64,000 bases of DNA. Source: Anaerolineaceae bacterium (GTDB lineage Bacteria > Chloroflexota > Anaerolineae > Anaerolineales > Anaerolineaceae). Within the stretch, counting starts at the first letter, position 1, and each line of letters starts with the position of its first letter. Below are positions 733 to 24,282 of this stretch, one piece after another. The position numbers and the translations under genes were made by a program. The stretch is from the NCBI GenBank assembly GCA_038562595.1, contig JBCFBH010000001.1, positions 36,093-100,092 of the forward strand, given 5' to 3'. The notes under the pieces were generated by a model. It did no database searches. It was not told the origin of the DNA and saw nothing but the letters and a program-made list of their open reading frames with translations.

Positions 733-1728
733 ATGATGACTGAAAACCTCGAACCTCTTTTCAAGCTGGATAAATACCAACGCGAAGCAAAATACCAAAG
801 CGTGTTCTATCAGCAAGACATCCTTTCCGTGAACCAATTCGGCAAGGATGATATGGATTATTTGTTTCACCGGGCAGATGAAATGCTTGCCATGTGCCGC
901 CGTTGGGGCACTTGCGACCTGCTGAAGGATTACACCCTGGCCTGTGTGTTCTACGAACCCAGCACCCGCACCAGTTCCTCCTTCATCTCTGCGATGGTGC
1001 GCCTGGGAGGTAAAGTTATTCCCATCACCGAAGGTATCCAGTACTCATCGGTGTCCAAAGGCGAATCTTTGATTGACAGCATGCTTACGCTGGAGCAATA
1101 CTGTGACGTTATCGTCTTGCGCCACCCCGAAATTGGCTCGTCCGCCACAGCCGCGAAATACGTGAAGGTGCCAATTATTAATGCCGGCGACGGTGCGGGG
1201 GAGCATCCCACTCAGGCGCTGCTGGACCTGTACACCATCAAGAGCGAACTCGGCCGCCTGGACGGGCTGAAAGTTGCCATGATTGGTGACTTACGCTATG
1301 GGCGCACCGTCCATTCCCTGACGCGCCTGCTCTCACAGTACGATGTTTCGCTGCGTTTTGTTTCACCCGACACCCTGCGATTGCCTCTGGACCTGATGAA
1401 CGATTTGATTGACAAGGGTGTAAAAGTTCGCGAGACCAACAAGGTTGCCGATGTTATCGAAAACGCGGATGTGCTTTACGTCACTCGCATCCAGAAAGAG
1501 CGCTTTAGCGACCTGGCGCAGTACGAGGAAGTGAAAAATTACTTCGAAATTAGCCCCGAGCTGATGGAACAGGCCAAGCAAAAAATGGTCGTGATGCACC
1601 CCTTGCCGCGCGTCGGCGAAATCCACTACAAAGTGGACCGCGACCCGCGAGCGGCTTACTTCCGCCAGGTGCAAAACGGCCTCTACATCCGCATGGCGCT
1701 GCTGGCAGCCGTGCTTGGACAGGCATAG
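733..1728 (+). CDS. pyrB: aspartate carbamoyltransferase catalytic subunit
   Basis: 331 aa. Motifs STRTSSSF (carbamoyl-phosphate site), [10 protein letters not shown] and HPLPR. Confidence 0.95.
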
Positions 1729-1773: not shown

Positions 1774-3171
1774 GTGATGAAATTTATCGAGAAAATAGAG
1801 AAAGCGGCAGAAAAGAATCACAGCCTGCTCATCATTGGATTGGACCCACAGGAGGAATTCCTGCCCGGAACCGGGGATATCTTTACGCGCCTGACGGATT
1901 GGGGCAAAGCGATTATCGAACTGACCAGCGACCAGGTATGCGGGTACAAGCCCAACATTGCCTTCTACGAACAATATGGACCCTCCGGGCTGCGCGCTCT
2001 GCAGGAAACTATCCGCGCCATCCCGGCGGACATTCCGGTGCTGCTGGACGCCAAGCGCGGAGACATTGGTTCCACCGCACAAGCCTACACCCGCGCGGCA
2101 TACGAACAATTCCAAGCGGATGCCGTCACGCTCAGCCCCTACCTTGGGCAGGACAGCATCAAACCTTTCCTCACGGAGCCGGATAAGTTTGTTTTTATCC
2201 TGTGCCAGACCTCCAACCCCTCCGCGAACGAAATTCAGGGCTACGGCACGCCGCCGCTGTACGAGTACATCGCCCGCGTCAGCCAGAATTGGGGCTCGCC
2301 AGATCAGGTCGGGCTGGTCATCGGGGCAACACAGCCCGAAGCGCTGCAGCGCGTGCGCGCGATTTGCCCGGATGCCTGGTTTTTGGCGCCGGGAGTCGGG
2401 GCGCAGGGCGCGGACCTGAGGACTGCCCTCACAGCCGGGCTGCGCGCGGATAAAAAAGGGGTTCTCGTGCCTGTTTCCCGCGCAGTAATCGCAGCGGAAT
2501 CTCCGCGCAAAGCCGCGGAAACGCTGCGCACCCAAATTAATACGGTCATCGCGGAAATCTCTCCCAGCCCGCTTGACCCTCTCCACGCGCTTGTGAACGG
2601 CCTGTTCTCAACCGGCTGCGTGAAATTTGGTAATTTCACGCTGGCATCTGGCAAGCAATCCCCGGTGTATCTTGATTTGCGCCGCCTGGTTTCTTACCCG
2701 GACGTATTGGACATGGCAGTGGAGGCCTATATCGACCGCTTAATCCCTCTCGATTTTGATTGTCTTGCCGGCGTCCCTTACGCCGCGCTGCCAATAGCAG
2801 CCATTGCTGCTTCCCGCTTGAAGCGCCCGATGGTCTACCCGCGCAAGGAAACTAAAACGCACGGCACCTCACAAATGGTGGAAGGGGTTTTTCAACAGGG
2901 GCAGCAGGCAGTGCTTCTGGAAGATGTTATCACCAGCGGTGGAAGCATTCAGACAGCTGCCGAGACGCTTTCATCCGCGGGTTTACAGGTGCGGGACGCT
3001 GTCGTGCTGGTGGACCGGGAACAAGGCGGCGTAAGCGCGCTCGCGCAGCAGGGGATTCAGGTGCATGCCGTGCTCACCATGCGTCAAATTTTGACCCGCC
3101 TGGAAAAACAGGACCTCATTGACCAGAGCACCTATCAGGAAGTCAGACGTTACCTGGACGGGGAAGCATGA
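1774..3171 (+). CDS. pyrF: bifunctional OMP decarboxylase (type 2) / orotate phosphoribosyltransferase fusion
   Basis: 465 aa. N-terminal half: [24 protein letters not shown] (PyrF type 2). C-terminal half: [19 protein letters not shown] and PRPP loop [11 protein letters not shown] (PyrE). SD AGGAGG at 1767-1772. ATG at 1777 is an alternative start. Confidence 0.9.
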
Positions 3172-4097
3172 CCGAATCAACGCTCTCCTGCGGGTTTCTC
3201 GGCCTGACCTTGCGGAACCCTCTCGTGCTGGCGTCCGGGATTCTGGGCACCAGCGCCAGCCTCCTGGAAAGGGTAGCCCGGGAAGGCGCGGGGGCAGTGA
3301 CTGCTAAAAGTTGCGGCCCGGAACCCAGGGAAGGGCACCCCAATCCGGTGGCATTAGCCTGGCAGGGCGGGGTCATTAACGCGATCGGTCTGACCAACCC
3401 CGGCGCGCCTGAGGAAGTTCCGCTTCTGCGGGCAGCCAAAAAGCGGCTTGCCGCGCTGGGAGTGCCGGTGTTCGCCAGCATCTTTGCCCCCACCACCGAA
3501 CAGTTTGGTGAGGTAGCACGCGTTATCGCCGAGGCGGAACCGGACCTGATTGAGGTCAACATCTCCTGCCCGAATGTCGCCAGTGAGTTTGGCACGCCGT
3601 TCTCGGCTTCAGCCGAAAGCGCGGCGGAGGTCACCCGCGCGGTGCGGAGAGCGGTCAGCCTGCCCATCAGCATCAAGCTGGCGCCCAACGTCTCCAATAT
3701 CGGACAGATTGCCAGGGCGGTTGCAGAAGAAGGCGCGGACGCTATTACCGCGATTAATACCATGCCCGCCATGCTGATTGACGCGGCAGCCGGCAAACCA
3801 GTTCTGTACAACCGCAGCGGCGGACTTTCCGGGCCCGCGCTCAAACCCATCGCGCTGCGCTGCGTGTACGAAATTGCCCGGTCTGTTCCCCTGCCGATTA
3901 TTGGCACCGGCGGAATCACTACAGGTACAGATGCCGCGGAGATGCTCATGGCCGGGGCCAGCCTGGTAGGAATTGGCTCCGCGGTCTGGCAGGATGGACC
4001 GGAGACTTTTGTCAGAATTAGCGTAGAACTGCTGGCTTTTATGCAGGCAGCCGGGTATGAATCAGTCGGGGCGCTGCGTGGGAAGGCGCTTAAATGA
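3168..4097 (+). CDS. pyrD: dihydroorotate dehydrogenase, class 1B catalytic subunit
   Basis: 309 aa. Motifs GLTNPG, NISCPN, GGITTG. ATGA overlap with the upstream gene. Confidence 0.9.
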
Positions 4098-4849
4098 GCC
4101 AGAAGGGTCTCTTTTCCTCATTTCGGGTTCATGCCGTCCGGCGTGAAAACCCTCATACCTGCACAATTTATCTGAATACCCACCTGGATGCCTTCCCGGG
4201 GCAATTTGTGATGGCATGGCTGCCTGGTATAGGGGAAAAACCTTTCAGTATCAGCGGGAATGACCCGCTGACGCTGACCGTGTGCGAGGTCGGCCCGCTC
4301 AGCCGCGCCCTCTGCCAGCTAAAAGCTGGAGACCTCTTGTGGCTGCGCGGACCACTGGGGAGAGGCTTCGAATTGGTCGGCCGGGCGCATATTCTGGTTG
4401 GCGGGGGCTACGGAGCCGCGCCGCTGAACTTTCTGGCAAAACAAGCCCGCGATCTGGGGCATGACGTAAGAGTTTGTCTTGGGGCAAAGACACGGTCTGA
4501 CTTGATTTTGGTGGATGCGTTCCGGGAATTGGGCTGCGAGGTCCTTTTGGCCACAGAAGACGGCAGCGTCGGTGAGCAGGGCTTGGTCAGCCTGCCCTTA
4601 TTGCGTGCCCTGGAGCAGAATCTTGCGGTCGGGGTTTACGCCTGCGGGCCCAGCGGCATGCTGCTGGCAGTCCACCAACTGTGCCGCCGCTTCCGGTTGC
4701 CGACGCAGCTCTCTTTTGAAGCGCTGATTCGCTGTGGGGTAGGCTTGTGCGGCTCGTGCGAGCTGAGCGAGGAGACCTGCAAGCTCCTGGGGGTTCCAGC
4801 TGGCTTTCTGGTCTGTCATGACGGCCCGGTGGTAAGGTCAGGGAGCTGA
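4094..4849 (+). CDS. pyrK: dihydroorotate dehydrogenase electron-transfer subunit
   Basis: 251 aa. FNR-like fold plus C-terminal 2Fe-2S cysteine cluster CGVGLCGSC. 4-nt overlap with pyrD. Confidence 0.85.
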
Positions 4850-5055
4850 GTAAGCAGCGGAATCCATCTCCAATTTATTTTTTTGATGAACCAGCTTCCG
4901 GTAAAACCTACAATAATGGATTTTTCCAGCAATTGCTGAGGTTTTTGTCTGTTTGCAGTACAATTAAGCAGCCGTCGTTTTGTTAGCCGAAAGGAGCAAA
5001 TCTTTCGCAATTGCATTTTTTCCAATCCGTTCACACAATTTAAACAGGAGAAAAG

Positions 5056-6294
5056 ATGAAAAAAGGTTTTTGGCTGTTCAATTTATTCTTGGTCCTTGCG
5101 CTTGTGCTCACCGCCTGCGCCCAGACCCCAGCTGAAACGGAAGCCCCAGCTGTGGACTGCCGCACCCAAACCAGCTCCGAAGCCGTAGGTTCCTACCAGG
5201 TCCCTGCGCCAGTTGAAGGCTGCTACAATGTCGCCTTTGTGTATGTCGGACCGCACGACGACGGTGGTTGGTCCCAGGCGCACGATGTTGGCCGCCAGTA
5301 CGTGGAGCAAACCATGGAAGACGTGCACACCGCTTACGTTGAAAACGTGGCGGAAGGCGCTGACTCGGAGCAGGTTACCCGCTCGCTGGCTCGCAAAGGC
5401 TTCGATGTAATCTTCACCACGTCGTTCGGCTTCATGGATTCCTCCGAAACCGTCGCCAATGAATTCCCGGATGTGGACATCATCCACATCAGCGGTTACA
5501 AAGCCAACGGCGCGAACTTCGGCAACCTGATGGGCGCCATGGAAGACATCAAGTACCTGGCTGGCATGCTGGCCGGCTCCCGCGCCAAACTGGACGGAAA
5601 CCCCAAGCTGGGTTACATGGCTACCTTCCCAATCCCCGAAGAGCTCCGCCTGGGCAACGCTTTCGCCCTTGGCGCGCAGAAGACCTGCCCGGAATGCACG
5701 ATTGACGTGCGCTTCATCAACACCTGGCACGATCCCATCCTCGAGCAGGAAGGCGCAAAGTCGCTCTTTGACGCTGGCGCTCAGGTCGTCATGACCGGCG
5801 CGGACACCCCCGCCCCCGCCCTGGCCGCCCCCGCTGGAAAATGGGGCATCACTTACGACTATATCGGCAACTGCACGCTGGATACCTGCCTGACCTCCAT
5901 GTACTGGAACTGGGGCGTGATCTATGCCGATATTGTGGATAAATCCCGCGCCGGCACCTGGAAGGGCGGCTGGGAATACTTCGATGCCGATTCAGGCGGG
6001 CTTGGTCTGTATGGCTTCATGGAAGGCGAGACAATGATGCCCGGCGTGGCTGAGCTTCCGGAAGCAGACCTGCAGCTGGTACGTGAAACCCTGGATAAGA
6101 TGCTCAAGGGAGAATTCACCCGCTTTGATGTCTTCAAAGGTCCAATTACTGATAATCAGGGCAATCTGATCCTCGCCGACGGCGTCAGCATGGAACAGCT
6201 TGACCTGGACGGGTTCAAACAGTTCGGCAGCGAATGCAAGACCTGCATGTACTGGTGGAACGAAAACATCACCGCGGAACTGCCCGACTTGTAA
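5056..6294 (+). CDS. BMP-family (PnrA/Med-like) ABC substrate-binding lipoprotein, probably for nucleosides
   Basis: 412 aa. Signal peptide with lipobox LVLTAC. BMP-like core (VAFVYVGPHDDGGWSQAH). Followed by a matching ATPase and two permeases. Confidence 0.85.
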   Translation: MKKGFWLFNLFLVLALVLTACAQTPAETEAPAVDCRTQTSSEAVGSYQVPAPVEGCYNVAFVYVGPHDDGGWSQAHDVGRQYVEQTMEDVHTAYVENVAEGADSEQVTRSLARKGFDVIFTTSFGFMDSSETVANEFPDVDIIHISGYKANGANFGNLMGAMEDIKYLAGMLAGSRAKLDGNPKLGYMATFPIPEELRLGNAFALGAQKTCPECTIDVRFINTWHDPILEQEGAKSLFDAGAQVVMTGADTPAPALAAPAGKWGITYDYIGNCTLDTCLTSMYWNWGVIYADIVDKSRAGTWKGGWEYFDADSGGLGLYGFMEGETMMPGVAELPEADLQLVRETLDKMLKGEFTRFDVFKGPITDNQGNLILADGVSMEQLDLDGFKQFGSECKTCMYWWNENITAELPDL

Positions 6295-9058: not shown

Positions 9059-10017
9059 GCCTGGAAATCATTCTCAGATCCGGTCTGTCCACAGGGACAA
9101 TTCTACTGTTCGCGGCAATCGGAGAAATCCTGACAGAGCTTGCCGGCATACAAAACCTTGGAGTGGAAGGCATGATGCTGCTCGGCGCGATGGCGGCTTT
9201 CAAGACTTCCCTGGCAACAGGCAGCCCCTGGCTGGGCTTGCTCGTGGGCATCGCCGCGGGCGGGCTGCTCAGCCTTGCCCATGCTCTGGTGACCATCCAT
9301 TTCCAGGCTGACCAGGTGGTCAGCGGCCTGTCGCTTACCTTTTTGGGTACCGGGCTGGCGCTCGTTCTGGGCGAGGGCCTGACCGGGCAAAACGCGCCGC
9401 TCATTCCCAGCCTGACTGTTCCCGTTCTTTCCAGAATTCCATGGATAGGGAAGGTTTTCTTTTCTGATTTGAACCTGCTGGTGTATCTTGGATATTTACT
9501 GATACCTATTGCGTGGTGGTACATCAACAAAACCCGCCCGGGGATGCACCTGCGCGCGGTAGGGGAGAAGCCTGCCGCGGCAGACAGCCTGGGCATTAAT
9601 GTCTACGGGGTGCGTTACCTATACACCTTTATGGGCGGCTGCCTGGCCGGTTTGGCGGGCGCGGCAATCAGCATCGCGATATCTCCCGGCTGGTACAGCA
9701 GCCTGACTACGTCCGGTCAGGGCTGGATCGCGGTGGCGCTGGTTATCTTTGCGCAGTGGAACCCGCTTAGGGCTGCCATGGGCGGCTACTTATTTGGCAT
9801 GCTGCGCCGCTTTATGCTCGACTTGCAAGGCCCAATGCTCCTGCTCGGGATGCGCAATCCATTCTTTTACAACCACAACCTGGTTTTCTTCCTGCAGATG
9901 ATGCCGTTTCTGCTGACGATTATCGCCCTGGTGTGGGGCTCCGCGTCCGCGCGCAGACAGCGCATTGGAGCACCTGGCGCGCTCGGTATCCCATATATCC
10001 GTGGGGAGAGGGACTGA
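9055..10017 (+). CDS. ABC transporter permease
   Basis: 320 aa, polytopic. TTGA start/stop overlap with the preceding permease gene. Confidence 0.85.
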   Translation: MSLEIILRSGLSTGTILLFAAIGEILTELAGIQNLGVEGMMLLGAMAAFKTSLATGSPWLGLLVGIAAGGLLSLAHALVTIHFQADQVVSGLSLTFLGTGLALVLGEGLTGQNAPLIPSLTVPVLSRIPWIGKVFFSDLNLLVYLGYLLIPIAWWYINKTRPGMHLRAVGEKPAAADSLGINVYGVRYLYTFMGGCLAGLAGAAISIAISPGWYSSLTTSGQGWIAVALVIFAQWNPLRAAMGGYLFGMLRRFMLDLQGPMLLLGMRNPFFYNHNLVFFLQMMPFLLTIIALVWGSASARRQRIGAPGALGIPYIRGERD

Positions 10018-10031
10018 AATTAAGCCCAAAC

Positions 10032-10057
10032 CAGAGGAGGCGTTGCCGCCTCCTCTG
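10032..10057 (+). terminator. stem-loop after the ABC operon
   Basis: cagaggaggcg-ttgc-cgcctcctctg (11-bp stem), 15 nt after the stop codon. Confidence 0.5.
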
Positions 10058-10239
10058 TGCTATTTGCACACCGCGTTAAGTGTGTGATGGGTCTGAGCGC
10101 GATCAGCGCGTTTGACTGCGCTTTGCCAACCAAGAGACGGTTTCCGCGGTTAGTGGGAAAAAAGGGTCGCGCGTAGCGGGCTTTTCTCAATAGAAGCGAA
10201 GTCCAAACTGACTGCCGGAAATGCCGCTGAAAGATCCTT

Positions 10240-10428
10240 CACTCCGTTCAGGATGACAGAGGAAAGGTGGGATGGATTGCGGTCAGGATGCTGGGCAAAG
10301 GAAAATCGGATCGCGGTCAGGACGCTGGGTGAAGCTAAGTCGGATCGCGGTCAGGATGCTGGGTGAAGCTAAGTCGGATCGCCGTCAGAACGCTGGGTGA
10401 ATCTAGTCGGATCGCGTTCAGGATGACC
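10240..10428. repeat. non-coding tandem array, about 5.5 units of a 34-bp repeat
   Basis: Units start at 10274, 10308, 10342, 10376 and 10409 (partial). Consensus GGATCGCGGTCAGGATGCTGGGTGAAGCTAAGTC. A degenerate first unit at about 10240-10273 and the last unit both carry CGTTCAGGATGAC. Confidence 0.85.
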
Positions 10429-10474
10429 AGTACTCCGCGCAGCTCAAACGGATCAAGCGCAGTTTTGCCCCTTT

Positions 10475-10894
10475 CTATCTGTCAAGCAAAGCCCGCGCGC
10501 TGCTGGCAATAAATTCCCGCTGCGCCGGCGTGATCGGGCAGTATTCGGAGTTCTGCCGGCTGGTATCCCGGTTTTCGACCAGCAAAATCAGAGCGTCCAG
10601 GCTCAGGACTGCGTTGTGCCAGGCCCCCTGCCGGACGTTATAAAGCAATCCTGGCTGCATCATTTTCACGCTCAGTTCCCCGGTGCCGTCGCCGCCGGCC
10701 AAAAAGAGCGCAGCTTCTCCTTCCAGCAGCACAAAGACTTCGTCCGTCTCCAAATGCCGTTCCAGCGTCTCCATCACGCTGGGGTCCATATCATCACAGT
10801 AGCGCAGCAGAGCCACCCGCCAGCAATTAAAGTCAATCAGCGCTTTGTAGCCGTCACCGTTGTAAGTACTCACCTGCAGCAATTCATTTTCCAT
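10475..10894 (-). CDS. cupin-domain protein
   Basis: About 139 aa from ATG 10894 (GGAAGGG SD upstream; the ORF-track start at 10915 is TTG). Beta-barrel-like HLETDEVFVLLEGEA segment. Starts about 20-25 nt after the GH94 stop. Confidence 0.6.
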   Translation of the reverse strand: MENELLQVSTYNGDGYKALIDFNCWRVALLRYCDDMDPSVMETLERHLETDEVFVLLEGEAALFLAGGDGTGELSVKMMQPGLLYNVRQGAWHNAVLSLDALILLVENRDTSRQNSEYCPITPAQREFIASSARALLDR

Positions 10895-10917
10895 GCGTTT
10901 TCCCTTCCATCCCAAAA

Positions 10918-13422
10918 TTACAGCGGCGGAGTGCCAAGCCTGACCTCGACGTAGACTTCCTCAGGCGCTCCGGATGGAACCGGAATAAGCGTTCCCTGGA
11001 TTTCCTTGCCGTCCACGCGCAGCTTACAGGCGTTGCCCGCGCCTACACGGATGACATTGATCAGATAGCGCGTTCCGCGGAACTCGCGCACTGCCTGAAA
11101 ACTCTGCCAAGCTTCCGGGATGACAGGCTGCACGCGCAGCCCATTGAATTCCGGTCGGATGCCCAGGATGTGCTGGGTAATTGCCGCGAAGTTCCAGGAG
11201 GCGGTGCCGGTGAGCCAGGAATTTTTAGCCTCGCCGTGGGTCGGAGCATCCTTGCCGGCGATCATCTGAGCGTAGACATAGGGCTCACAGCGGTGGACCT
11301 CACTGATCTGTTCGCGAGCTGAGGGGCATATGCGAGTGTAATAATCAAAAGCGCGGTCTCCTCTGCCAATTTTGGTTTCGGCAATCATGATCCAGGGGTT
11401 GTTGTGGCAAAAAATTCCGGCATTTTCCTTGTATCCAGGCGGATATGTGGATATTTCCCCTAATTTCAATTCATAGTGGGTATATGCGGGCTGTAAAATG
11501 ACAATCCCGTGAGGGGTTGCCAGGCGCTCCGCGACAGAATCAAGTGCGGCTTGCGCCTTGCCGTCCTCCACGCCCAAACCCGCCATCACGCATATGCCCT
11601 GTGGTTCAATAAAGATCTGCCCTTCAGGGTTCACGCTTGAACCCACCGGCTCGCCAAAGGCATCGTACGCGCGGCGGAACCAGGCGCCATCCCAACCAGC
11701 GGCCCATACCGCGGCTTCCATCAGGCGCGCTTTTTCGCGGTAGAAATCCGCGGGCTGTTGGAAAAAGCCGGGGTTCTCCAAGCGGTGCAACTCGGCAAGC
11801 TGCACCATATCCTGGGCGGCCAGCACAAACAGCCCGGCTATGAACACGCTCTCGGCGACCGTTCCTTCCTGGTTGGTGGTCGTCTGAAAAGATTGACCTG
11901 GAGTGTCCGAGAAACAGTTCAGGTTCAGGCAGTCATTCCAGTCCGCGCGTCCAATCAGCGGCAGCCCGTGCGGGCCGAGCGCGTTCAGAGTGTATTGCAT
12001 GGAGCGCTGCAGATGCTCGTAAAGCGGCATTTCGGAGCCGGGCTGGTTTTCATACTGTACGAGCGCATCCAGAATAGAAGTATCCCCGGTTTCCTTCACA
12101 TACGCGGAAGTGCCCAAAACCAACCAGAGTGGGTCGTCGTTGAAGCCGGACCCAACATCGTTGTTGCCGCGCTTGGTCAGGGGTTGGTACTGGTGGAATG
12201 CGCCGCCGTTTTGCAGTTGCGTGGCAGCTAATTCCAGGATGCGCTCGCGCGAACGTTCGGGGACCAGGTGCACAAAACCCAGCAGGTCCTGGTTGGAATC
12301 TCTGAAGCCCATCCCTCGCCCGATGCCGGATTCAAAATAGCTCGCGGAGCGGCTCATGTTGAAGGTGACCATGCACTGGTACGCGTTCCAGATATTGACC
12401 ATGCGGTTTGTGTGCGGGTCTGGGGTGTGCACCTGGAACTTTGATAGCAAGCGTTCCCAGTCAGCTTTGAGTTCAGCGAAGGCAGTGTCCACGCTTTGGG
12501 GCTGCAGGTAGCGTTGTAAAATGGGCAAGACGCTGTCTTTTTTGATGGTTTGCGAACCAGGCTGCGCGAATTTATCCGCCGGGTCATTTTCATGATAGCC
12601 CAACAGGAAGATGATTCTGCGCATTTCGCCAGGCTGCAGTTGCAGCCTCAGATGATGGGAGCCGATTGGCTGCCATCCGTGCGCCTCTGAGTTGGAAGAT
12701 TCACCGCGCTCCACCGCGACGGGGTCATCCCAGCCGCGGTAAGCCCCGAGGAAGTCCTCGCGCTGGGTGTCAAAACCCGCCAGCGGTTCGGAGCACGCGA
12801 AAAACGCGAAGTGGTTTCGCCTTTCCCGGTATTCCGTCTTATGGAAGATGGTTCCTGCCAGAGCTCCGTTTATGGCGTCATCTCTCTTTGGGATTTCAAC
12901 TTCGCCGGTGTTGAAGTTGCGCTGAAAATTGGTCCGGTCATCCCAGGCGTCCCACAGCGCAAATTCAACAGCTGAAAACAGGCTGAGTTCTGCCGGCGTC
13001 TCGCGTTGGTTCGTGAGCGTGAGGTCCCAGACTTCCAGAGCGGCATCCAAGGGCACAAAGAACTTGATGCTTGTTTCAATTCCCGCGGACTTTGAGCGTA
13101 TCTGGGTGTAGCCAAGCCCATGCCGGCATTCATAAGCGTCGAGTTGGGTGCGCATCGGCATCCACCCGGCGGACCAGCGCTGACCGTTCTCGTCATCGCG
13201 CAGGTAAAGGTAGCGCCCGCCCATATCCAACGGGGCGTTGTTGTAGCGGTAGCGCGTAATCCTGCGCAGACGGGCATCTTTGTAAAAGCAGTAACCGCCG
13301 CCTGTGTTGCTAATCAGACTGTAAAAATCGCGGCTGCCAAGGTAATTAATCCAGGGTAAAGGGGTATCCGGTCTGGTAATGACATATTCCCGGGCTTTGT
13401 CGTCAAAAAATCCGTAGTGCAT
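10918..13422 (-). CDS. GH94 glycoside phosphorylase (cellobiose/chitobiose phosphorylase family)
   Basis: 834 aa. N-terminus MHYGFFDDKAREYVITRPDTPLPWINYLG matches the conserved start of cellobiose phosphorylases. The size is typical of the family. Confidence 0.9.
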   Translation of the reverse strand: MHYGFFDDKAREYVITRPDTPLPWINYLGSRDFYSLISNTGGGYCFYKDARLRRITRYRYNNAPLDMGGRYLYLRDDENGQRWSAGWMPMRTQLDAYECRHGLGYTQIRSKSAGIETSIKFFVPLDAALEVWDLTLTNQRETPAELSLFSAVEFALWDAWDDRTNFQRNFNTGEVEIPKRDDAINGALAGTIFHKTEYRERRNHFAFFACSEPLAGFDTQREDFLGAYRGWDDPVAVERGESSNSEAHGWQPIGSHHLRLQLQPGEMRRIIFLLGYHENDPADKFAQPGSQTIKKDSVLPILQRYLQPQSVDTAFAELKADWERLLSKFQVHTPDPHTNRMVNIWNAYQCMVTFNMSRSASYFESGIGRGMGFRDSNQDLLGFVHLVPERSRERILELAATQLQNGGAFHQYQPLTKRGNNDVGSGFNDDPLWLVLGTSAYVKETGDTSILDALVQYENQPGSEMPLYEHLQRSMQYTLNALGPHGLPLIGRADWNDCLNLNCFSDTPGQSFQTTTNQEGTVAESVFIAGLFVLAAQDMVQLAELHRLENPGFFQQPADFYREKARLMEAAVWAAGWDGAWFRRAYDAFGEPVGSSVNPEGQIFIEPQGICVMAGLGVEDGKAQAALDSVAERLATPHGIVILQPAYTHYELKLGEISTYPPGYKENAGIFCHNNPWIMIAETKIGRGDRAFDYYTRICPSAREQISEVHRCEPYVYAQMIAGKDAPTHGEAKNSWLTGTASWNFAAITQHILGIRPEFNGLRVQPVIPEAWQSFQAVREFRGTRYLINVIRVGAGNACKLRVDGKEIQGTLIPVPSGAPEEVYVEVRLGTPPL

Positions 13423-13632: not shown

Positions 13633-14733
13633 ATGAACGCCGCAAACACTAACACCCTAACACCGGCTCCCACCGAGCCGACCCGATTGGTATGGCTGGA
13701 CTTGCTGCGCATCACAGCCTCTGTGCTCATTGTGGCGCTGAACCTGACCTCGGTACAACTCAGGACGCTGCCGCTGAACGCGCACGCCTGGCAGCCTATC
13801 AATCTTTACCTCGGCGCGGCCCGTGCCGCGACACCCCTCTTCACAATGGTCAGCGGTATCCTTTTCCTTGGTTTGGGCAAGCAGCGCACTTTCAAACAGC
13901 TCCTCCAGGGACCAGTCAGGAAGATTACGGTAATATATGTCGTTTGGTCGCTGATTTACGCCCTCTTCACCCTGCTTTCCACCCCAGCTGGAACCGGCAC
14001 GCTGTTCGGGCGTTTTGCCTCTCTGGTGGTCAGCAGCCATTATCACCTGTGGTTCCTGCCTGTCCTGATTAGCCTGTACCTGCTCTCACCTTTCCTGCAG
14101 CTGATTGTTGACCAGGCCGGTGAACATATGCTCAGGTACGCCGCTGTTCTGCTTGTTTTGGGTTTGTTGGGGCATACCTTGGTACTGAGCGGGGATTTGC
14201 TCCCTATGGCAGATTGGGTGAGTACGATCGCAGAGAAATTCCCGATCGGCAAAGTGCTGCTCTTCGCGGGGTACTTTCTGCTGAGCAATTATCTGCTGCG
14301 CCATTTTTCCGCGGACCGTAAAGTCAGCCCAGTCATCTATGGGTTGGGCCTGATGGGGGCGCTTGCGAACGCTGCCGTGACCTGGCTGGCATCCCAAAGG
14401 ATGGGCGCAACGGATTTACGCTTCTCAGACCCGCTTTCCCTGATGACTTTCTTTACTGCCGCAGCAGTGTTTTTGGTTTTCAGGACACAGGTCAGCAAAA
14501 TTGCTTTTTCCGAGCGGGCGCGCTCCCTGATCGCAAATCTATCTCGCCTGACCTTGGGCGTGTTTCTGGTTCATCCGCTGGTCATCTTTTTTCTGGAGAA
14601 AGCTTTCGGGCTCAGCTTGCTCTCATTCAGCGCTGTTCTCTCGGTGCCGTTATTGACCCTGTTGGTTTTCTTCCTCAGCGCTGGTCTCATCTTCGCGGTC
14701 AAAAAGCTGCCCTTCCTGTGTTGGATTGCTTGA
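13633..14733 (+). CDS. acyltransferase family 3 membrane protein
   Basis: WLDLLRITASVLIV signature followed by about 10 TM segments. The ORF-track start 13417 overlaps the GH94 start and adds an Arg-rich non-membrane extension, so ATG 13633 is preferred. Confidence 0.7.
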   Translation: MNAANTNTLTPAPTEPTRLVWLDLLRITASVLIVALNLTSVQLRTLPLNAHAWQPINLYLGAARAATPLFTMVSGILFLGLGKQRTFKQLLQGPVRKITVIYVVWSLIYALFTLLSTPAGTGTLFGRFASLVVSSHYHLWFLPVLISLYLLSPFLQLIVDQAGEHMLRYAAVLLVLGLLGHTLVLSGDLLPMADWVSTIAEKFPIGKVLLFAGYFLLSNYLLRHFSADRKVSPVIYGLGLMGALANAAVTWLASQRMGATDLRFSDPLSLMTFFTAAAVFLVFRTQVSKIAFSERARSLIANLSRLTLGVFLVHPLVIFFLEKAFGLSLLSFSAVLSVPLLTLLVFFLSAGLIFAVKKLPFLCWIA

Positions 14734-18255: not shown

Positions 18256-18727
18256 TGCGCCTCCGATCTACTATATTTTTAGAAATTATAGCTTATTCAG
18301 GAAAGACATTCCCCTCCGCCGGATAGACCCCTTAGTACTCTTGCTAAAACACCTATGCGCATTATTCCAGACACGCCTGTAAGCGTTTCTCCTGGCCATC
18401 CTCCCCCTCCCGGACCAAAGCACCCCGGTACTTTAAACAGGCATCTTTTTGACGATGATGCGCTATATTGAGAACTATCTACACGCAATTTCATCAAAGA
18501 CCAAGGCGTTTCGAGTAAGTATTTTTCCGTTCCGGAACAGCCTCTGAATTGAGAAAGTCATTACTATGCGCAAATTATTACATAGACGGGGAGTTTTTTT
18601 TGTTTCCCGGCGGCAATTTCCGCCAGTTCGAGAGCTCGAGCCTGAGTTGGCACTCGAAAATAGCGTTCTATTTTTAAAAAGAAAAAAGCAAAGCTTGCCT
18701 ATGAGGGGAGAGTATTCAAGGCAGTTC

Positions 18728-20899
18728 TTAAGCCTCAGCAATGCCCAGTATATCAATGGTGCGTTGGAGCAGCTGAGCGCGCGTTCTGGTATCGGAGGAA
18801 GAAGCCAAAAGCGCTTCCAGGTCATCCGCGCCCGCGGCAGCCAACGGGCTTCTGCCGATGTAACCGGCTTGAATGCGCTGGCGCTCGCCCCAGAGGAGTT
18901 CAGCCAGCACCGGCGCATTCAGTGCCGCCAGACGTTCAGCGGACCCGCCGGCACCATTCATAGTCTCGAGTGTGCGGCTGACAGCAAAACTCAGCGGGCT
19001 GTGGATGGACTTGGTCAGACAACCGTGGATTAACCAGGTCAGGAAGTGATTGCGGGAAGGTGGAGGCAGGATGCGCTCTCTGAGCGCTGGATTCACTCTG
19101 GCAAGGAGCGCTTCCACATCCCAACCATCATCCAAAAAATAACCCACCACCCTGTTTTGTTCCTGCGACGCTGGTATTTCGCACGTTTGTGTATCTGGTT
19201 GGATGGTGTTTTTAGGGAAAATCGCAGAATCTTTGAGTCTAAAAAGTATCTTAATTATCGTATCAAATTGACAAATTTCCGCGTCAACCAATGTCTCAAA
19301 ATGACAATTAAGACTGTCCGCCAAAGTATCAAAATGACAAATTTGTTCCGCTTCTAAGGTCTCAAACTGACAAATACCCTGGGAGACTAAAGTCTCATAA
19401 TGACAAATTCGCCTGGCGTCCAGCCGCAATGCGCCGCGGAGGAGCTGGGCATAGCGCGTGTCAGAAGAAAAAGCCTGTAAAGCCAGGCGTTGTTCAGCGC
19501 TTGCTTCACTGAGCAAGAAGGCATACATGGCGCCCTTCAGAAGTTCGTCGGAGGCAGTAAGGCGAACCTCTTCCACGCGCAGCTGCCAATCCAAGCCAGC
19601 GGCGTTTGAACGGGTAGCAACCCGGCAAAGATATTGGCTGGCAAGCTGGCGGTTTGCTTCGCGCCACTCACGGGCGTATTCAGTACCAGGGTTTACTTCT
19701 TGCTTACGCGGACGACCGCGAGCGCTTTGTTTTAGGTGAGGAATGCGTCCGGGCAGCGTTTCGGAGCGGATCCACTTCTGCAGGGTTGGCAATCCGCCCG
19801 GTACCCAAAATGTGTTGCGGTCCTTTCCGCGCGCCCAGTCAATATAGCAGCAATTCTTGCTCATAAGGTAGAGCATACCCAAATCCGCGCCGAGGTCCGG
19901 TAAGACGCGGTGAAACCAGTACCACGGTACAGCCAGAAAACTTTCAGGTCGGATAAGATGCGCTGCCAACCGGTCGCATAATCCGGCCAAAGCCGGAGTG
20001 AGGCGGGAATCGCCCAGGGCTGCCTGCAAAACTTCGTGTACTGACGCGGCTGTCGAAAAAATGTCGTCCTTCGAAGGGTCCGGGGTGCGGTAGGGGAACA
20101 CAAGCATATGGTCGCGAGGTGTCTCCAGCGCCTTTTTGATGGTGCCAGCTGGGTCTGCGCTGAGACCTGCTTCAAGCAGCCAGCGGTAGAGATCCTGCGC
20201 GTCTCCAGGGGTCAGCAGGAGTCCGCGGTAGGTGTAGGTGTTTGCCTGGCGCACAATCTTACCGTTCACAAAGCGGTGGACAGGTTCCGCGCGGTGCACG
20301 AACCAATCCAATGCGCCGCTTTTGAAGACGCGGAAGAAAGTAGCGCGACTGATAACACGCCCGAGCATATTCAGAAGACCTTCCACGTCAATTGTTACCG
20401 CGTCACCCAGGCGGGGGTAGAGTTGGTCCGCGCCGTGTTCGCGGGAGCGTCGGTAAAAAGCTTGCCTGAGCGCGCTGGCAATCAGGACCGCGTTGGACCC
20501 TACAAAGGGAACAAAACGCAGCAGATAGGCGGGAATGGCGGCAATCGATTCGGGCGCGAGGATTGCCTCCGAGACATCTGAGGCGCCAAATTCAAGCGTC
20601 AGAGCACCATCTTCTGCGGCTTCAGACGCGGTAGGAAACGGTGATAGACCGGGAAGTGTGCCCATGGGCACAGTAGGGCTCATCGTCAGACGGAATTCCT
20701 TGCCGGTCAAATCCTGTACGACGGTTTCAATCAATGGATAATAACGGCAAAGACTGGCGTAGACCATTGGAGGGGCGCTGAGCTGATAGCTGCCGTTGTA
20801 GCTGACGCTGGCGGAATCAAGCAAATGGGCTAAAGCCGCGTCTTGCTTGGCGGCCAAAACCGCCTGGATATCCGACCACGCATTTACTTCAGAATTCAT
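18728..20899 (-). CDS. large protein of unknown function containing five 11-aa ICxFETL repeats (possible initiator-like DNA-binding protein)
   Basis: 723-aa uninterrupted ORF co-directional with the upstream AAA ATPase gene. No catalytic motif recognised. Repeats ICHYETLVSQG/ICQFETLEAEQ/ICHFDTLADSL/NCHFETLVDAE/ICQFDTIIKIL. Confidence 0.75.
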   Translation of the reverse strand: MNSEVNAWSDIQAVLAAKQDAALAHLLDSASVSYNGSYQLSAPPMVYASLCRYYPLIETVVQDLTGKEFRLTMSPTVPMGTLPGLSPFPTASEAAEDGALTLEFGASDVSEAILAPESIAAIPAYLLRFVPFVGSNAVLIASALRQAFYRRSREHGADQLYPRLGDAVTIDVEGLLNMLGRVISRATFFRVFKSGALDWFVHRAEPVHRFVNGKIVRQANTYTYRGLLLTPGDAQDLYRWLLEAGLSADPAGTIKKALETPRDHMLVFPYRTPDPSKDDIFSTAASVHEVLQAALGDSRLTPALAGLCDRLAAHLIRPESFLAVPWYWFHRVLPDLGADLGMLYLMSKNCCYIDWARGKDRNTFWVPGGLPTLQKWIRSETLPGRIPHLKQSARGRPRKQEVNPGTEYAREWREANRQLASQYLCRVATRSNAAGLDWQLRVEEVRLTASDELLKGAMYAFLLSEASAEQRLALQAFSSDTRYAQLLRGALRLDARRICHYETLVSQGICQFETLEAEQICHFDTLADSLNCHFETLVDAEICQFDTIIKILFRLKDSAIFPKNTIQPDTQTCEIPASQEQNRVVGYFLDDGWDVEALLARVNPALRERILPPPSRNHFLTWLIHGCLTKSIHSPLSFAVSRTLETMNGAGGSAERLAALNAPVLAELLWGERQRIQAGYIGRSPLAAAGADDLEALLASSSDTRTRAQLLQRTIDILGIAEA
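19260..19409 (+). repeat. five copies of the 18-bp motif GTMTCAWAHTGACAAWTW at exact 33-bp spacing, inside the 723-aa gene
   Basis: Copies start at 19260, 19293, 19326, 19359 and 19392. Core TGTC-N7-GACA dyad in three of the five copies; copies 1 and 3 read GTATC. Confidence 0.85.
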
Positions 20900-21941: not shown

Positions 21942-21969
21942 TTGTAAAGAACAGAAAATAATGTAAAAT
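21942..21969 (+). promoter_or_regulatory. candidate sigma70-type promoter of parA
   Basis: TTGTAA-N16-TAAAAT in the AT-rich divergent intergenic region. It overlaps the first ATG of the ORF-track ORF, which supports the 22013 start. Confidence 0.4.
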
Positions 21970-22012
21970 GTACACAAGCATTTATTTTTCAGACAAGGAG
22001 CGCGGAGCGCCG

Positions 22013-22843
22013 ATGGCAATTATATCTCTGATTAACCGTAAGGGTGGAGTGGGAAAATCCACCATCAGCATCAACCTGGCGGCAGGCTTAGCGATTTATG
22101 AATCCCGCAAAGCCATTCATAAGCCGGTGCTGCTGATCGATATGGATGACCAATTAAGCGCGACAATCACCGCAATGGGTGGTGGTTTGGATGACCAGTT
22201 TGTGCCCATGATCACTGCCGAAAACAACTTTCCAAACGCGCTTGGAAATGGATACGGGGCTTCAGATACGCTCATCAATGACTCCCTGCTGCCGCGCAAA
22301 CGCGAGGAAAAAGTGCGCATCTTCCGCACGAACAAGACGCGCATGGAAGGCCTGGAAGCCGCCCTGAAAACCCGGGAAGACCCTGCTTTTCAACTGACCT
22401 ATTTCCTGGAATCCATCAAGGATGAGTATTCCTACATCATCATCGATAACCCCCCTTCGGCCGGGATTGTGCCAATGAACTCGTTGGTGGCGAGCACGCA
22501 CGTCTTAATCCCAATTGAACCGGACGGATTGAGTTTGATTGGCCTGGCAGATATTCTGCGCATGATTGAAGGCGTCCACAAAAACACCAACCCGGACTTA
22601 AAGATTCTGGGAATTATTCCTTCGCGCTTTCGCATGATCCGCCGTCAATCGCGCGACGTTATCGAGGATATGGAAAGGATGTACGGCCACCTGCTGCTGC
22701 CCTACATCAAGGACCTGGCGGAAATCTCCGCGGCGACCACATCTGGTTACGATATCTTTTCGTATTGTCCGGAGAAGTCCCAGGCTTACCGCTGCTTCTC
22801 CAATCTGGTGGATGCAGTTATGGGCAAGCTCGGCGAGGCATAG
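22013..22843 (+). CDS. parA: ParA-family partition ATPase
   Basis: Deviant Walker A NRKGGVGKST right after the start. GGAG 5 nt upstream of ATG 22013. Confidence 0.9.
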   Translation: MAIISLINRKGGVGKSTISINLAAGLAIYESRKAIHKPVLLIDMDDQLSATITAMGGGLDDQFVPMITAENNFPNALGNGYGASDTLINDSLLPRKREEKVRIFRTNKTRMEGLEAALKTREDPAFQLTYFLESIKDEYSYIIIDNPPSAGIVPMNSLVASTHVLIPIEPDGLSLIGLADILRMIEGVHKNTNPDLKILGIIPSRFRMIRRQSRDVIEDMERMYGHLLLPYIKDLAEISAATTSGYDIFSYCPEKSQAYRCFSNLVDAVMGKLGEA

Positions 22844-22925
22844 CTGGCGCGGAAAACTCAGCGCGTGTAAATGTGTGCCCATGGGCACAGTACGGGAAAC
22901 GCGAAAAAAGAAAGGAAGCTGAACA

Positions 22926-24091: not shown

Positions 24092-24125
24092 CCGCGTCGG
24101 GAGTTTTCCCGGCGCGGTTATTTTT
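24092..24125 (+). terminator. rho-independent terminator of parB
   Basis: ccgcgtcggg-agtttt-cccggcgcgg (10 bp with one G-U pair) followed by ttattttt. Confidence 0.65.
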
Positions 24126-24264
24126 GAGAAAGAATCCAACGAAAAACCGACCTCTATCAGGAAAACGAAGCCCCTGCAAGAAAAACTTTCGGTAACGGAG
24201 TGAAGTTTTCTAATTTCTAATTCGCAACGGTATTGCGCGTAGGTATATTCTTGTGTGCTCTAAT

Positions 24265-24282
24265 GTCTCAAAATGACAAATT
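24265..24282 (+). promoter_or_regulatory. isolated non-coding copy of the 18-bp motif (GTCTCAAAATGACAAATT)
   Basis: Matches the consensus of the five intragenic copies, in the same orientation. Lies 140 nt past the parB terminator. No ORF covers it. Confidence 0.6.

Follow-up and report, generated by a model that had tools for sequence, protein, structure and literature searches.

A phased array of 17-bp sites inside a partition-linked gene of Anaerolineaceae is a candidate replication origin within the gene of its putative initiator

In a 64-kb stretch of DNA from an Anaerolineaceae bacterium (the window), a gene for a 723-aa protein next to a parAB pair contains a tandem array of short direct repeats. 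Comparison with orthologous and more distant loci indicates that this array is probably the iteron part of an iteron-plus-DUE (DNA-unwinding element), theta-type origin of the plasmid style, located inside the gene of its own initiator, and that the 723-aa protein is most likely an initiator that has not been described previously.

Results

Five 17-bp sites in helical phase

The 723-aa ORF harbors five copies of a 17-mer (coding-strand consensus ATTTGTCATTTTGAGAC) that are 33 bp apart (Table 1). The initial annotation had placed five 18-mers at starts 19260, 19293, 19326, 19359, and 19392, and this is exactly where they are located. Motifs of 18 nt are indeed present at these positions, but the conserved core comprises only 17 nt; in the orthologs, conservation of third codon positions ends abruptly past nt 17. 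A degenerate pattern had seven matches in the 64 kb compared to 0.51 expected, a number that was attained in none of 100 shuffles. Five of the matches are the copies in the gene, a further one is the perfect sixth copy at 24265–24282, and the last, at 13371, is doubtful, with 3 mismatches. The minus-strand motifs specify I-C-(H/Q)-(F/Y)-(E/D)-T in each of five 11-aa repeats, which span residues 498–552 of the 723-aa ORF. The four intervening residues of each repeat are more variable than the motif, but they do not vary entirely freely.

A TGTC-N7-GACA dyad had been attributed to three of the five copies. In the gene it occurs only in the copy at 19293, and it is also present in the solitary sixth copy; the shorter form GTC-N7-GAC is found in three in-gene copies (19293, 19359, and 19392). 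Because the G at position 15 of the 17-mer is conserved in only 62% of cases in the orthologs, the dyad is not a conserved feature, and the site is therefore essentially asymmetric. Positions G5, T6, A8, T12, G13, A14, A16, and C17 of the 17-mer are invariant.

The phasing is nearly invariant. Adjacent copies are spaced by 33 bp at all 553 pairs in 146 loci, with the exception of a single 66-bp gap, which represents an array in which one copy scored below the threshold, and 135 of 140 arrays contain five copies. A spacing of 33 bp corresponds to three helical turns, so that all sites would lie on one face of the helix. Iteron origins have at least three direct sites of 17–22 bp in helical phase, and the array has five of them. 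The DnaA box has a TTATCCACA-like consensus, and no resemblance to it was found in the consensus of the 17-mer. In none of the 61 orthologs described below is the array spanned by an ORF in another frame or on the other strand.

Table 1. Features of the window discussed in the text, with positions in the 64-kb window.
Feature	Position	Strand	Remarks
723-aa gene hosting the array, putative initiator	18728..20899	-	Domain layout, ortholog conservation
A+T-rich segment, candidate DNA-unwinding element	19225..19259	-	Directly 3' (gene orientation) of copy 5
Iteron-like 17-mer copy 1 (gene order), ATTTGTCATTATGAGAC	19392..19408	-	Codons I-C-H-Y-E-T; PWM, 33-bp phasing
Iteron-like 17-mer copy 2, ATTTGTCAGTTTGAGAC	19359..19375	-	I-C-Q-F-E-T
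Iteron-like 17-mer copy 3, ATTTGTCATTTTGATAC	19326..19342	-	I-C-H-F-D-T
Iteron-like 17-mer copy 4, AATTGTCATTTTGAGAC	19293..19309	-	N-C-H-F-E-T
Iteron-like 17-mer copy 5, ATTTGTCAATTTGATAC	19260..19276	-	I-C-Q-F-D-T
Perfect 16-bp palindrome TGTGCCCATGGGCACA, probable parS	20657..20672	.	Inside the 723-aa gene, codons V-P-M-G-T
AAA_22 P-loop ATPase, 279 aa	21016..21855	-	Directly upstream of the 723-aa gene, co-oriented
ParA-family partition ATPase	21968..22843	+	Divergently transcribed
Second perfect copy of the 16-bp palindrome TGTGCCCATGGGCACA, probable parS	22874..22889	.	parA-parB intergenic region
Divergent ParB/Spo0J/Noc-like protein, 380 aa	22926..24068	+	Divergently transcribed, pair with ParA
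Solitary non-coding 17-mer ATTTGTCATTTTGAGAC	24265..24281	-	4.9 kb from the array, in the array's orientation

Selection acts on the nucleotides of the 17-mer

The initial annotation had predicted that a constraint on the DNA would suppress synonymous change in orthologs, and the result with 61 Anaerolineaceae orthologs (41–82% aa identity) was strongly positive. Within the 17-mer core, Cys was encoded by TGT in 249 of 249 cases, whereas this codon accounted for 32% of Cys codons elsewhere in the same genes. Biases of this kind were also observed for His (CAT, 144/145 in the core versus 52% elsewhere), Phe (TTT, 246/252 versus 54%), Tyr (TAT, 86/87 versus 55%), Asn (AAT, 106/106 versus 50%), and Glu (GAG, 187/196 or 95% versus 35%), and the Ile codon ATC, with a share of 49% elsewhere, was used only once among 245 Ile codons of the core. 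Among 16 lineages that are less than 62% mutually identical, TGT was found in 70 of 70 cases in the core compared to 39 of 118 (p = 1e-23). A plain A+T preference is ruled out by the choice of GAG and CAG in the 17-mer. Non-synonymous changes from GAG to GAT and from CAT to CAG were common, whereas the synonymous changes from GAG to GAA and from CAT to CAC were nearly absent. In an unbiased scan of the gene, just 21 of the 270 degenerate codon columns with a conserved amino acid had a single codon in at least 90% of the sequences, and these 21 columns cluster at two places, namely the array and a parS-like palindrome. Selection on the 17-mer acts on nucleotides, and the motif is conserved as DNA, not as protein.

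The solitary copy outside of the gene

The sixth copy is intergenic. It is located 197 bp past the stop codon of the parB-like gene, beyond a terminator-like hairpin of parB at 24092–24117. A near-perfect solitary copy is present past parB in 47 ortholog loci. Its orientation is direct in 45 loci and inverted in the other two (L056 and L065), and in most cases a parS-like palindrome is found no more than about 200 bp away. Apart from the array and the solitary copy, there were almost no matches to the 17-mer in about 1 Mb. No solitary copy was found near the three distant relatives examined, and thus its role is clade-specific. That a non-coding copy counts against a purely protein feature had been argued from the window, and its conservation in 47 orthologous loci bears this out. 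Together, the frozen synonymous sites and the conserved non-coding copy support the original proposal of a helically phased array of binding sites that is maintained at the DNA level.

Direct 17-bp repeats at a distance of 4.9 kb could also be recombination substrates for the excision or inversion of the parAB-AAA segment between the solitary copy and the array, and the inverted solitary copies of L056 and L065 would fit such a role. However, joints between the solitary copy and the array were not found in the assembled contigs, the module has no recombinase gene, and the five phased copies would be left unexplained. We consider this explanation extremely improbable.

An A+T-rich segment on one side of the array

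The 30–40 bp directly 3' of the fifth copy are about 84% A+T. In the 61 orthologs, the mean GC content of the 30 nt following copy 5 is 0.16, compared to about 0.55 in the flanking gene. An AT-rich stretch is found 3' of the last repeat, on the same side, also in the three distant relatives examined. The segment thus has the place and the composition of the A+T-rich DNA-unwinding element that adjoins the sites of iteron origins.

The 723-aa protein

The protein consists of a degenerate DnaA-domain-I-like N-terminus (residues 1–75), a conserved core (about 115–470), the repeat-encoded segment, and a conserved C-terminal domain (about 590–723). The array-encoded residues are thus flanked by conserved blocks, which is the layout of an origin within an initiator ORF. 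The protein had no match in Pfam, NCBIfam, or PHROGs, and searches of these databases and of PDB sequences revealed no homology to RepA_N (PF06970) or to lambda O. A PDB-sequence profile search returned a single marginal match (3pmc, a pXO2 protein of unknown function, E = 0.002) in addition to noise. Foldseek searches of the PDB at E < 0.5 were without a match for the full AF2 model (pLDDT 81) and for a model of residues 115–400 (pLDDT 74.5); the best matches, weak and with E > 0.5, were winged-helix proteins. Low-level transcript fragments map over the gene.

Of the domains of DnaA, AAA+ domain III and the DNA-binding fold of domain IV are absent from the polypeptide, on which Bac_DnaA and Bac_DnaA_C had no Pfam match; the AAA_22 ATPase is encoded separately upstream. 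DnaA_N (PF11638) likewise did not match the 723-aa protein directly in Pfam; the predicted structure of its N-terminus has the order alpha-alpha-beta-beta-alpha-alpha-beta.

An unannotated superfamily with in-gene arrays

The superfamily of the 723-aa protein comprises 309 representatives at 50% clustering and is unannotated. DnaA_N (PF11638) was above the Pfam threshold in 12 of the 15 distant members scanned, and hhalign aligned the family of the window to distant members with a probability of 100% over 660 columns, including the N-terminus. ParA/ParB and an AAA_22 ATPase are encoded next to the distant members. Of 36 distant members that were inspected, nearly all contain tandem repeats of unrelated sequence at the corresponding place in the gene. 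In two relatives, the repeat unit has a period of 21–24 bp, and two or three frames of it are translated. A homolog with 28.6% identity is encoded on a complete 179.7-kb Chloroflexota plasmid (CP069395.1) of the cultured strain ZRK35, within a ParB-ParA-AAA_22-initiator module at roughly 101–108 kb; its gene contains an array of its own, with five 33-bp-phased repeats of a different motif. No further Rep, DnaA, or partition gene is annotated on CP069395.1 beyond this module. A scan of IMG/VR yielded no viral relatives, and no description of this family, of replication in Anaerolineae, or of plasmid plas-ZRK was found in the literature.

These observations bear on two further explanations of the array. 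It could be a purely protein feature, a structural repeat of 11 residues from which the similarity of the DNA merely follows, and indeed the peptide is conserved and predicted to form confident helices (pLDDT about 90). The helices indicate that the repeat-encoded peptide is not a mere linker, and it may have a role in the protein as well. As the sole explanation, however, a peptide-only tandem repeat is refuted by the frozen synonymous sites, next to which some non-synonymous changes are tolerated, by the conservation of an identical non-coding copy, and by the reading of the same DNA unit in several frames in relatives. Furthermore, the repeat sequences are unrelated between lineages in which the architecture is kept. 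Hardly any probability remains for this reading.

Alternatively, the 17-mer could act in the mRNA, as a motif for an RNA-binding protein or a small RNA, or by tuning translation. The solitary copy has the orientation of the array at 45 of 47 loci, and low-level transcript fragments are seen over the 723-aa gene; both would fit an RNA element. On the other hand, folding of the array region was no better than that of shuffled controls (z = −0.21), an Rfam scan of the whole window detected no family, and the solitary copy lies in non-coding DNA past the terminator-like hairpin. The periods found in relatives, 21–24 and 33 bp, are close to two and three helical turns, as suits the phasing of DNA sites, and they are not always multiples of three. 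An RNA-level element is therefore very improbable.

Neighboring genes and parS-like palindromes

In all ortholog loci that extend far enough, the AAA_22 ATPase gene keeps its synteny with the 723-aa gene, and the same holds for the distant relatives; the ATPase is a candidate helicase loader or ATPase subunit of the initiator. Around parAB, the perfect 16-bp palindrome occurs in two to four conserved copies, and the synonymous sites of its in-gene copy are frozen. It is probably the natural parS of the ParB homolog. A palindrome of about 16 bp is the form expected of parS; TGTGCCCATGGGCACA has this form, and the asymmetric 17-mer does not.

Direct-repeat arrays act as centromeres in some plasmid systems. 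The array adjoins parA and parB, and the proximity of the solitary copy to a parS-like palindrome in most loci would also be compatible with a partition site for the ParB homolog or for another centromere-binding protein. Yet the separate conserved palindrome is the type of site expected for an HTH-ParB, and in the plasmid relative it co-varies with ParB (TTTGCCACGTGGCAAA in CP069395.1). In addition, at one locus (L073) the partner is an RHH-type partition protein and the initiator-like gene still has its in-gene array; apparently, the presence of an array goes with the large protein, regardless of the type of partition system. A centromere is thus quite improbable. The comparison of sequences supports the reading as an iteron origin as the better fit because the palindrome would serve as the natural parS for ParB, because a conserved AT-rich stretch adjoins the array, and because the family of the host protein carries DnaA N-terminal domains.

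The replicon that carries the module

The window contains the housekeeping genes pyrB, pyrD, pyrF/E, glnA, and ccm, and neither plasmid hallmarks nor dnaA/dnaN were found in its 64 kb. For a plasmid-type origin to be active in this setting, the replicon would therefore have to be a chromid or a chromosome of an unusual kind. Vertical conservation of the module extends over 66 species-level genomes. In a scan bearing on chromosome versus chromid, the longest metagenome contig was 138 kb. The GC-skew shift between the flanks was small at 27 loci (+0.024, positive in 20 of 27); gene orientation and shared ancestry are confounding factors, and the shift is absent in the longer flanks of the window.

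A control array is the remaining rival. The 17-mers could be operators bound by the 723-aa protein or another regulator, with replication starting elsewhere, and could serve autoregulation, a transcriptional roadblock, or DNA looping with the solitary site. DNA-level constraint and a distant solitary copy suit any sequence-specific binding array, and neither the housekeeping context nor the weak GC skew is an independent sign of an active origin. However, an AT-rich segment on a fixed side of the array across the superfamily, the DnaA N-terminal domains of the superfamily proteins, and the lack of any annotated replication candidate other than the module on a complete plasmid are all better suited to initiation, and we regard operators alone as unlikely.

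Discussion

If the array is an origin, the comparisons outline a mechanism; the protein that binds the sites, DNA melting, helicase recruitment, the firing of the origin, and the role of the solitary site are what we infer. The conserved central region of the 723-aa protein would bind the five direct asymmetric 17-bp sites as monomers. The nucleoprotein complex would melt the adjoining A+T-rich stretch, and the DnaA-domain-I-like N-terminus, together with the neighboring AAA_22 ATPase, would recruit the replicative helicase. The ParA/ParB pair would segregate the replicon via the 16-bp palindromes. The conserved solitary 17-mer past parB would be a sixth initiator site, which may serve control by looping or handcuffing, or coupling to the partition complex.

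As to the replicon, a clade-wide chromid that carries the module is a serious possibility, although we stop short of calling it probable. If true, Anaerolineae would have their first case of a multipartite genome architecture. This version is considerably more likely than one in which the replicon is the main or an essential chromosome that is replicated from a DnaA-box-free, plasmid-type origin within the initiator gene, a scenario we think rather doubtful. The initiator would then amount to a split DnaA analogue, in which one polypeptide combines a domain-I-like module with a DNA-binding core and the P-loop ATPase is a separate protein. As the module lies among essential metabolic genes, these abundant bacteria of digesters and groundwater may carry a chromid or a non-canonical chromosome origin.

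The analysis defines a large, unannotated, partition-linked superfamily of putative initiators, about 300 clusters at 50% identity, with a common architecture, in which a DnaA_N-like domain is followed by a conserved core, then by the in-gene array of sites and its AT-rich segment, and finally by a C-terminal domain. The analysis also provides the first concrete candidate pair of origin and Rep for Chloroflexota/Anaerolineae. To our knowledge, these bacteria lack genetic tools, so that a mini-replicon based on the module or on plasmid plas-ZRK would be of direct use. The array also appears to be a clean natural case of dual coding, in which a putative DNA-binding site dictates the sequence of an 11-residue protein repeat in a whole bacterial family, which bears on annotation and on analyses of the dN/dS type.

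Several known systems share some of these features. The DnaA-like protein (DALP) of Rickettsia plasmids is plasmid-encoded, contains DnaA_N (PF11638), and has been proposed to be an initiator (PMC4316617). Its likeness to the superfamily is one of domain description; its DnaA_N is C-terminal, and an in-gene iteron array has not been reported for it.

The replicon of Vibrio cholerae ori2 has a ParAB of its own, and there is cross-talk of its partition sites with its replication sites. Its initiator RctB is a large, plasmid-derived multi-domain protein (PMC5397143). The present replicon likewise carries housekeeping genes, that of V. cholerae being a domesticated secondary chromosome. However, there is no homology to RctB, and the RctB sites (11/12-mers and 39-mers) are intergenic.

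Classical iteron plasmids include RK2 with TrfA (17-bp iterons), F with RepE, P1 with RepA, R6K with pi, and pPS10 with RepA, and have extra iterons elsewhere for control or handcuffing. The array shares with them direct, helically phased sites of 17–22 bp that adjoin an AT-rich DUE. Their origins are intergenic with a usual period of about 22 bp, whereas the array lies within a gene and has a period of 33 bp, and their Rep proteins are Rep_3/winged-helix proteins of about 30–40 kDa.

The location within a gene has parallels in the RepA_N theta plasmids of Firmicutes, a family that comprises pAD1 and pLS32 in addition to pSK41. In pSK41, four Rep boxes lie centrally within rep, the segment encoded by them is a linker, and the N-terminal part of the protein binds the boxes (PMC5703833). 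The present sites are likewise central in the gene, and the segment that the DNA encodes is lineage-specific in both. Unlike the RepA_N proteins, the 723-aa protein has no RepA_N domain in Pfam, exceeds them in length more than twofold, has relatives with a DnaA_N domain, and contains a conserved repeat-encoded peptide for which structure is predicted; in addition, the host phylum is Chloroflexota.

In phage lambda, ori-lambda is located inside gene O and consists of four 18-bp iterons and a 38-bp AT-rich segment (PMC3349717). The 723-aa protein has no sequence or Pfam relation to lambda O, its partner is an AAA_22 ATPase and not lambda P, and the setting is cellular and ParAB-linked. The five sites are asymmetric and exactly 33 bp apart, whereas the four lambda iterons are dyad-symmetric and more closely spaced. 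The layout is nevertheless alike: the (candidate) origin lies inside the ORF of the initiator, several iterons of 17–19 bp have an AT-rich segment of about 40 bp next to them on one side, and the origin-encoded peptide is placed between N- and C-terminal functional regions (PMC3349717).

Selection on the DNA of the in-gene repeats

The initial annotation had described five 18-mers at an exact 33-bp phase within a coding sequence and had interpreted them as DNA-binding sites of an iteron or centromere type. The positions were confirmed, and a degenerate pattern of the motif has seven matches in the 64 kb compared with 0.5 expected, a number that none of 100 shuffles reached. At the protein level, the array encodes five 11-residue repeats composed of ICH(Y/F)ETL and four variable residues. 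We analyzed 66 orthologous loci from species-representative genomes, placed the repeat region in 61 of them by peptide similarity alone, and compared the codons of the 7-residue core of the repeats with those in the remainder of the same genes. The synonymous positions of the core are almost invariant in the 61 orthologs, and this freeze stops sharply past nt 17, with only 0.04–0.16 bits at the third positions nt 18, 21, 24, 27, and 30.

Codon usage in the repeat core and elsewhere in the same genes
Amino acid	Codon	Core	Elsewhere
Cys	TGT	249/249	32%
His	CAT	144/145	52%
Phe	TTT	246/252	54%
Tyr	TAT	86/87	55%
Asn	AAT	106/106	50%
Glu	GAG	187/196	35%
Ile	ATC	1/245	49%

The substitutions that are allowed in the 17-mer obey DNA rather than protein logic: the amino acid-changing GAG to GAT or GAC (Glu to Asp) and CAT to CAG (His to Gln) are common, whereas the silent GAG to GAA and CAT to CAC are nearly absent. 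A plain A+T pull as the cause of the codon bias is ruled out by the preference for GAG and CAG. Among 16 lineages with mutual identities below 62%, the effect was still overwhelming (TGT 70/70 vs. 39/118, p = 1e-23). In an unbiased scan of the entire gene, 21 of the 270 amino acid-conserved degenerate codon columns used one codon in at least 90% of the cases, and these 21 columns fall into two clusters, one at the array and the other at a 16-bp palindrome that lies further upstream in the gene. No other open reading frame runs through the array on either strand in any ortholog, RNA structure predictions for the array region yielded nothing beyond shuffled controls, and an Rfam search gave no match. 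The repeats are real, and the near invariance of synonymous sites in orthologs, the very check that the initial annotation had proposed, supports its DNA-level reading.

Conserved architecture of the module

Of 140 arrays, 135 contain five copies. Neighbouring copies are spaced by 33 bp in all 553 cases (146 loci), except for a single 66-bp gap in which one copy is below the score threshold; in-frame indels between copies were not seen, although the protein would have tolerated them. Directly 3' of copy 5, in gene orientation, follows an A+T-rich stretch that is conserved in orthologs, with a mean GC of 0.16 over 30 nt, compared with 0.32–0.43 within the array itself and about 0.55 for flanking coding sequence. 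A solitary near-perfect 17-mer was found 3' of parB in 47 loci with enough flank, at a distance of 4.6–8.5 kb from the array; its orientation is direct in 45 of them. Apart from the array and solitary copies, 17-mer matches are almost absent from about 1 Mb of locus sequence. The sole ortholog locus with extra 17-mer-like copies, L037, has two identical ATTTGTCATTATGAAAC at 13937 and 15901, that is, 2.5 and 4.4 kb downstream of its array. The gene order parB(-) parA(-) / AAA_22(+) 723-aa gene(+) is found in every sufficiently long locus, and the outer flanks vary.

Features of the window
Feature	Position	Strand	Remarks
pyrB	733-1728		pyrimidine biosynthesis cluster
pyrF-pyrE ORF	1774-3171		pyrimidine biosynthesis cluster
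pyrD	3168-4097		pyrimidine biosynthesis cluster
ABC permease gene	ends 10017		borders gap
34-bp tandem repeat GGATCGCGGTCAGGATGCTGGGTGAAGCTAAGTC	10274-10425		4.5 copies, 85% identity; in gap
GH94 phosphorylase gene	10918-13422	minus	borders gap
CTAYGCGCATTA motif	18353-18364		
ORF hosting the array	18728-20899	minus	723 aa
A+T-rich stretch	~19225-19259		
Five 18-mers	starts 19260, 19293, 19326, 19359, 19392		spacing exactly 33 bp
Perfect 16-bp palindrome TGTGCCCATGGGCACA	20657-20672		inside 723-aa gene; codons V-P-M-G-T, synonymous sites frozen
Perfect 16-bp palindrome TGTGCCCATGGGCACA	22874-22889		between parA and parB
CTAYGCGCATTA motif	24231-24243		
Sixth copy	24265-24282	as array	perfect, non-coding; past end of parB-like gene

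A TGTC-N7-GACA dyad had been reported for three of the five copies, but within the array it is confined to the copy at 19293 (it also occurs in the solitary copy); three in-gene copies contain the shorter GTC-N7-GAC. Because the relevant G of the dyad is only 62% conserved across orthologs, the 17-mer is essentially asymmetric. The palindrome TGTGCCCATGGGCACA is retained, mostly perfectly, at both of its places in nearly all orthologs, and in many it also lies 25–200 bp from the solitary 17-mer. It is probably the parS of the divergent ParB/Spo0J/Noc-like protein. As a palindrome is the type of site expected for such a protein, the asymmetric direct repeats are left for a different protein. 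A third conserved motif, CTAYGCGCATTA, is an imperfect palindrome with the core ATGCGCAT, located at about 20 nt distance to the solitary 17-mer. A second, inverted copy comes shortly after the stop codon of the 723-aa gene, about 1.0–1.25 kb past the array; the whole module thus lies between the two copies. In two loci this motif forms long arrays adjoining the module, with 16 occurrences about 115–180 bp apart in L036 (about 3870–5840) and 10 at multiples of about 120 bp in L027 (about 9270–11420).

The protein family and its distant members

The 723-aa protein has no match in Pfam, NCBIfam, or PHROG. At least 149 full-length relatives, all labelled hypothetical, are present in Anaerolineaceae metagenome bins, and an exhaustive profile search yielded 309 representatives at 50% clustering, mostly of 650–860 aa. 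Two short contigs with this Anaerolineaceae-type gene (L007 and L013) were assigned to Candidatus Saccharibacteria and Bathyarchaeia bins, most likely due to binning contamination. A Pfam scan of 15 distant members detected the DnaA N-terminal domain (PF11638) with a score above the curated threshold in 12, in some of them twice. The profile-profile alignment of the window family with these relatives covers 660 columns, with the N-terminus included, at a probability of 100%. In the AlphaFold model of the window protein (pLDDT 81), residues 1-75 are predicted to adopt the order alpha-alpha-beta-beta-alpha-alpha-beta of DnaA domain I; for the rest of the protein, Foldseek retrieved no significant match, only weak winged-helix resemblances.

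The complete circular plasmid CP069395.1 (plas-ZRK, 179.7 kb) of the Chloroflexota strain ZRK35 encodes a 28.6%-identical homolog (E = 1e-47), likewise in a ParB-ParA-AAA_22-large protein module (L067, 101-108 kb). Neither a further replication initiator nor a further partition gene is present in the annotation of the whole plasmid, for which the PLSDB gene table may be incomplete. No gene of plas-ZRK is annotated as a replication gene, and by annotation this module is its only candidate replicon. The homologous gene has five repeats at an exact 33-bp phase in the equivalent position, with a different motif, TAATTTCCnATTTTGAAACACCGG. The parS-like palindromes also differ from those of the window: there are five of the TTTGCCACGTGGCAAA type, including a cluster of four just past parB.

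Nearly all of 36 distant members inspected have short tandem repeats at the equivalent place, with a period of 11 aa, or 8 aa in some, and unrelated between lineages (NDCFETL, SSNFETF, GKRADET, GAVCTL, AAFRD, DSQDHTI, and others). In two relatives (L072, 11408-11583; L073, 2995-3150), the in-gene unit has a period of 21–24 bp and is read in two or three frames, as illustrated by GGCGCGTTTGGAACAA, which is translated as G-A-F-G-T, A-R-L-E-Q, and G-R-V-W-N. One unit being translated in several frames, the repeat is a property of the DNA. In each of the three distant relatives that were examined, the last repeat is followed, on the same side, by an A+T-rich stretch. These relatives adjoin ParA with a ParB-like or RHH-type partner; one lies among toxin-antitoxin modules and another is followed by SSB, a typical plasmid setting.

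The replicon

The gene content of the window is housekeeping (pyrB, pyrF/E, pyrD, glnA, cytochrome c maturation genes, a DEAD-box helicase, TldD/PmbA), and the 64 kb lack tRNA, dnaA/dnaN, and mobile-element genes. The pyrimidine cluster includes an apparent pyrF-pyrE fusion with orotidine-5'-phosphate decarboxylase and phosphoribosyltransferase domains. The longest module-bearing contig has 166 kb in the genome collection, and 138 kb in a metagenome scan for longer ones. Throughout the clade, the module shows vertical conservation. If it were a silent integrated plasmid origin, its cis-elements would not all be retained under such selection; therefore, the replicon is probably a domesticated secondary chromosome or chromid and, less probably, the main chromosome, a distinction on which GC skew was uninformative.

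A putative origin within the initiator gene

The combination of phased direct repeats, their co-evolution with a cognate protein, a one-sided DNA-unwinding element, and a neighbouring partition system is the pattern of an iteron origin. Unusual is its position inside the initiator gene, for which ori-lambda, where gene O contains four 18-bp iterons and a 38-bp AT-rich segment (PMC3349717), and RepA_N plasmids, with Rep boxes central within rep (PMC5703833), are well-studied precedents. In E. coli, self-association and helicase recruitment are functions of DnaA domain I (PMC5448010), and DnaA_N-bearing proteins of Rickettsia have been proposed as plasmid initiators (PMC4316617). Based on the iteron-origin pattern and the two precedents, we propose that the 723-aa protein would bind the 17-mers and open the AT-rich segment, that its domain I-like N-terminus, together with the AAA_22 ATPase, would recruit and load the helicase, and that the origin would then fire; the solitary site may serve control or coupling with partition. 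Selection on the DNA, the architecture, synteny, and family relations are demonstrated here, and from the binding step to origin firing this model is inferred. The concept of an origin inside its own initiator gene is already known; the initiator family, the organisation of DnaA_N plus a separate ATPase, the 33-bp phase that imposes a conserved repeat on the peptide, and the occurrence on Anaerolineaceae housekeeping replicons are new.
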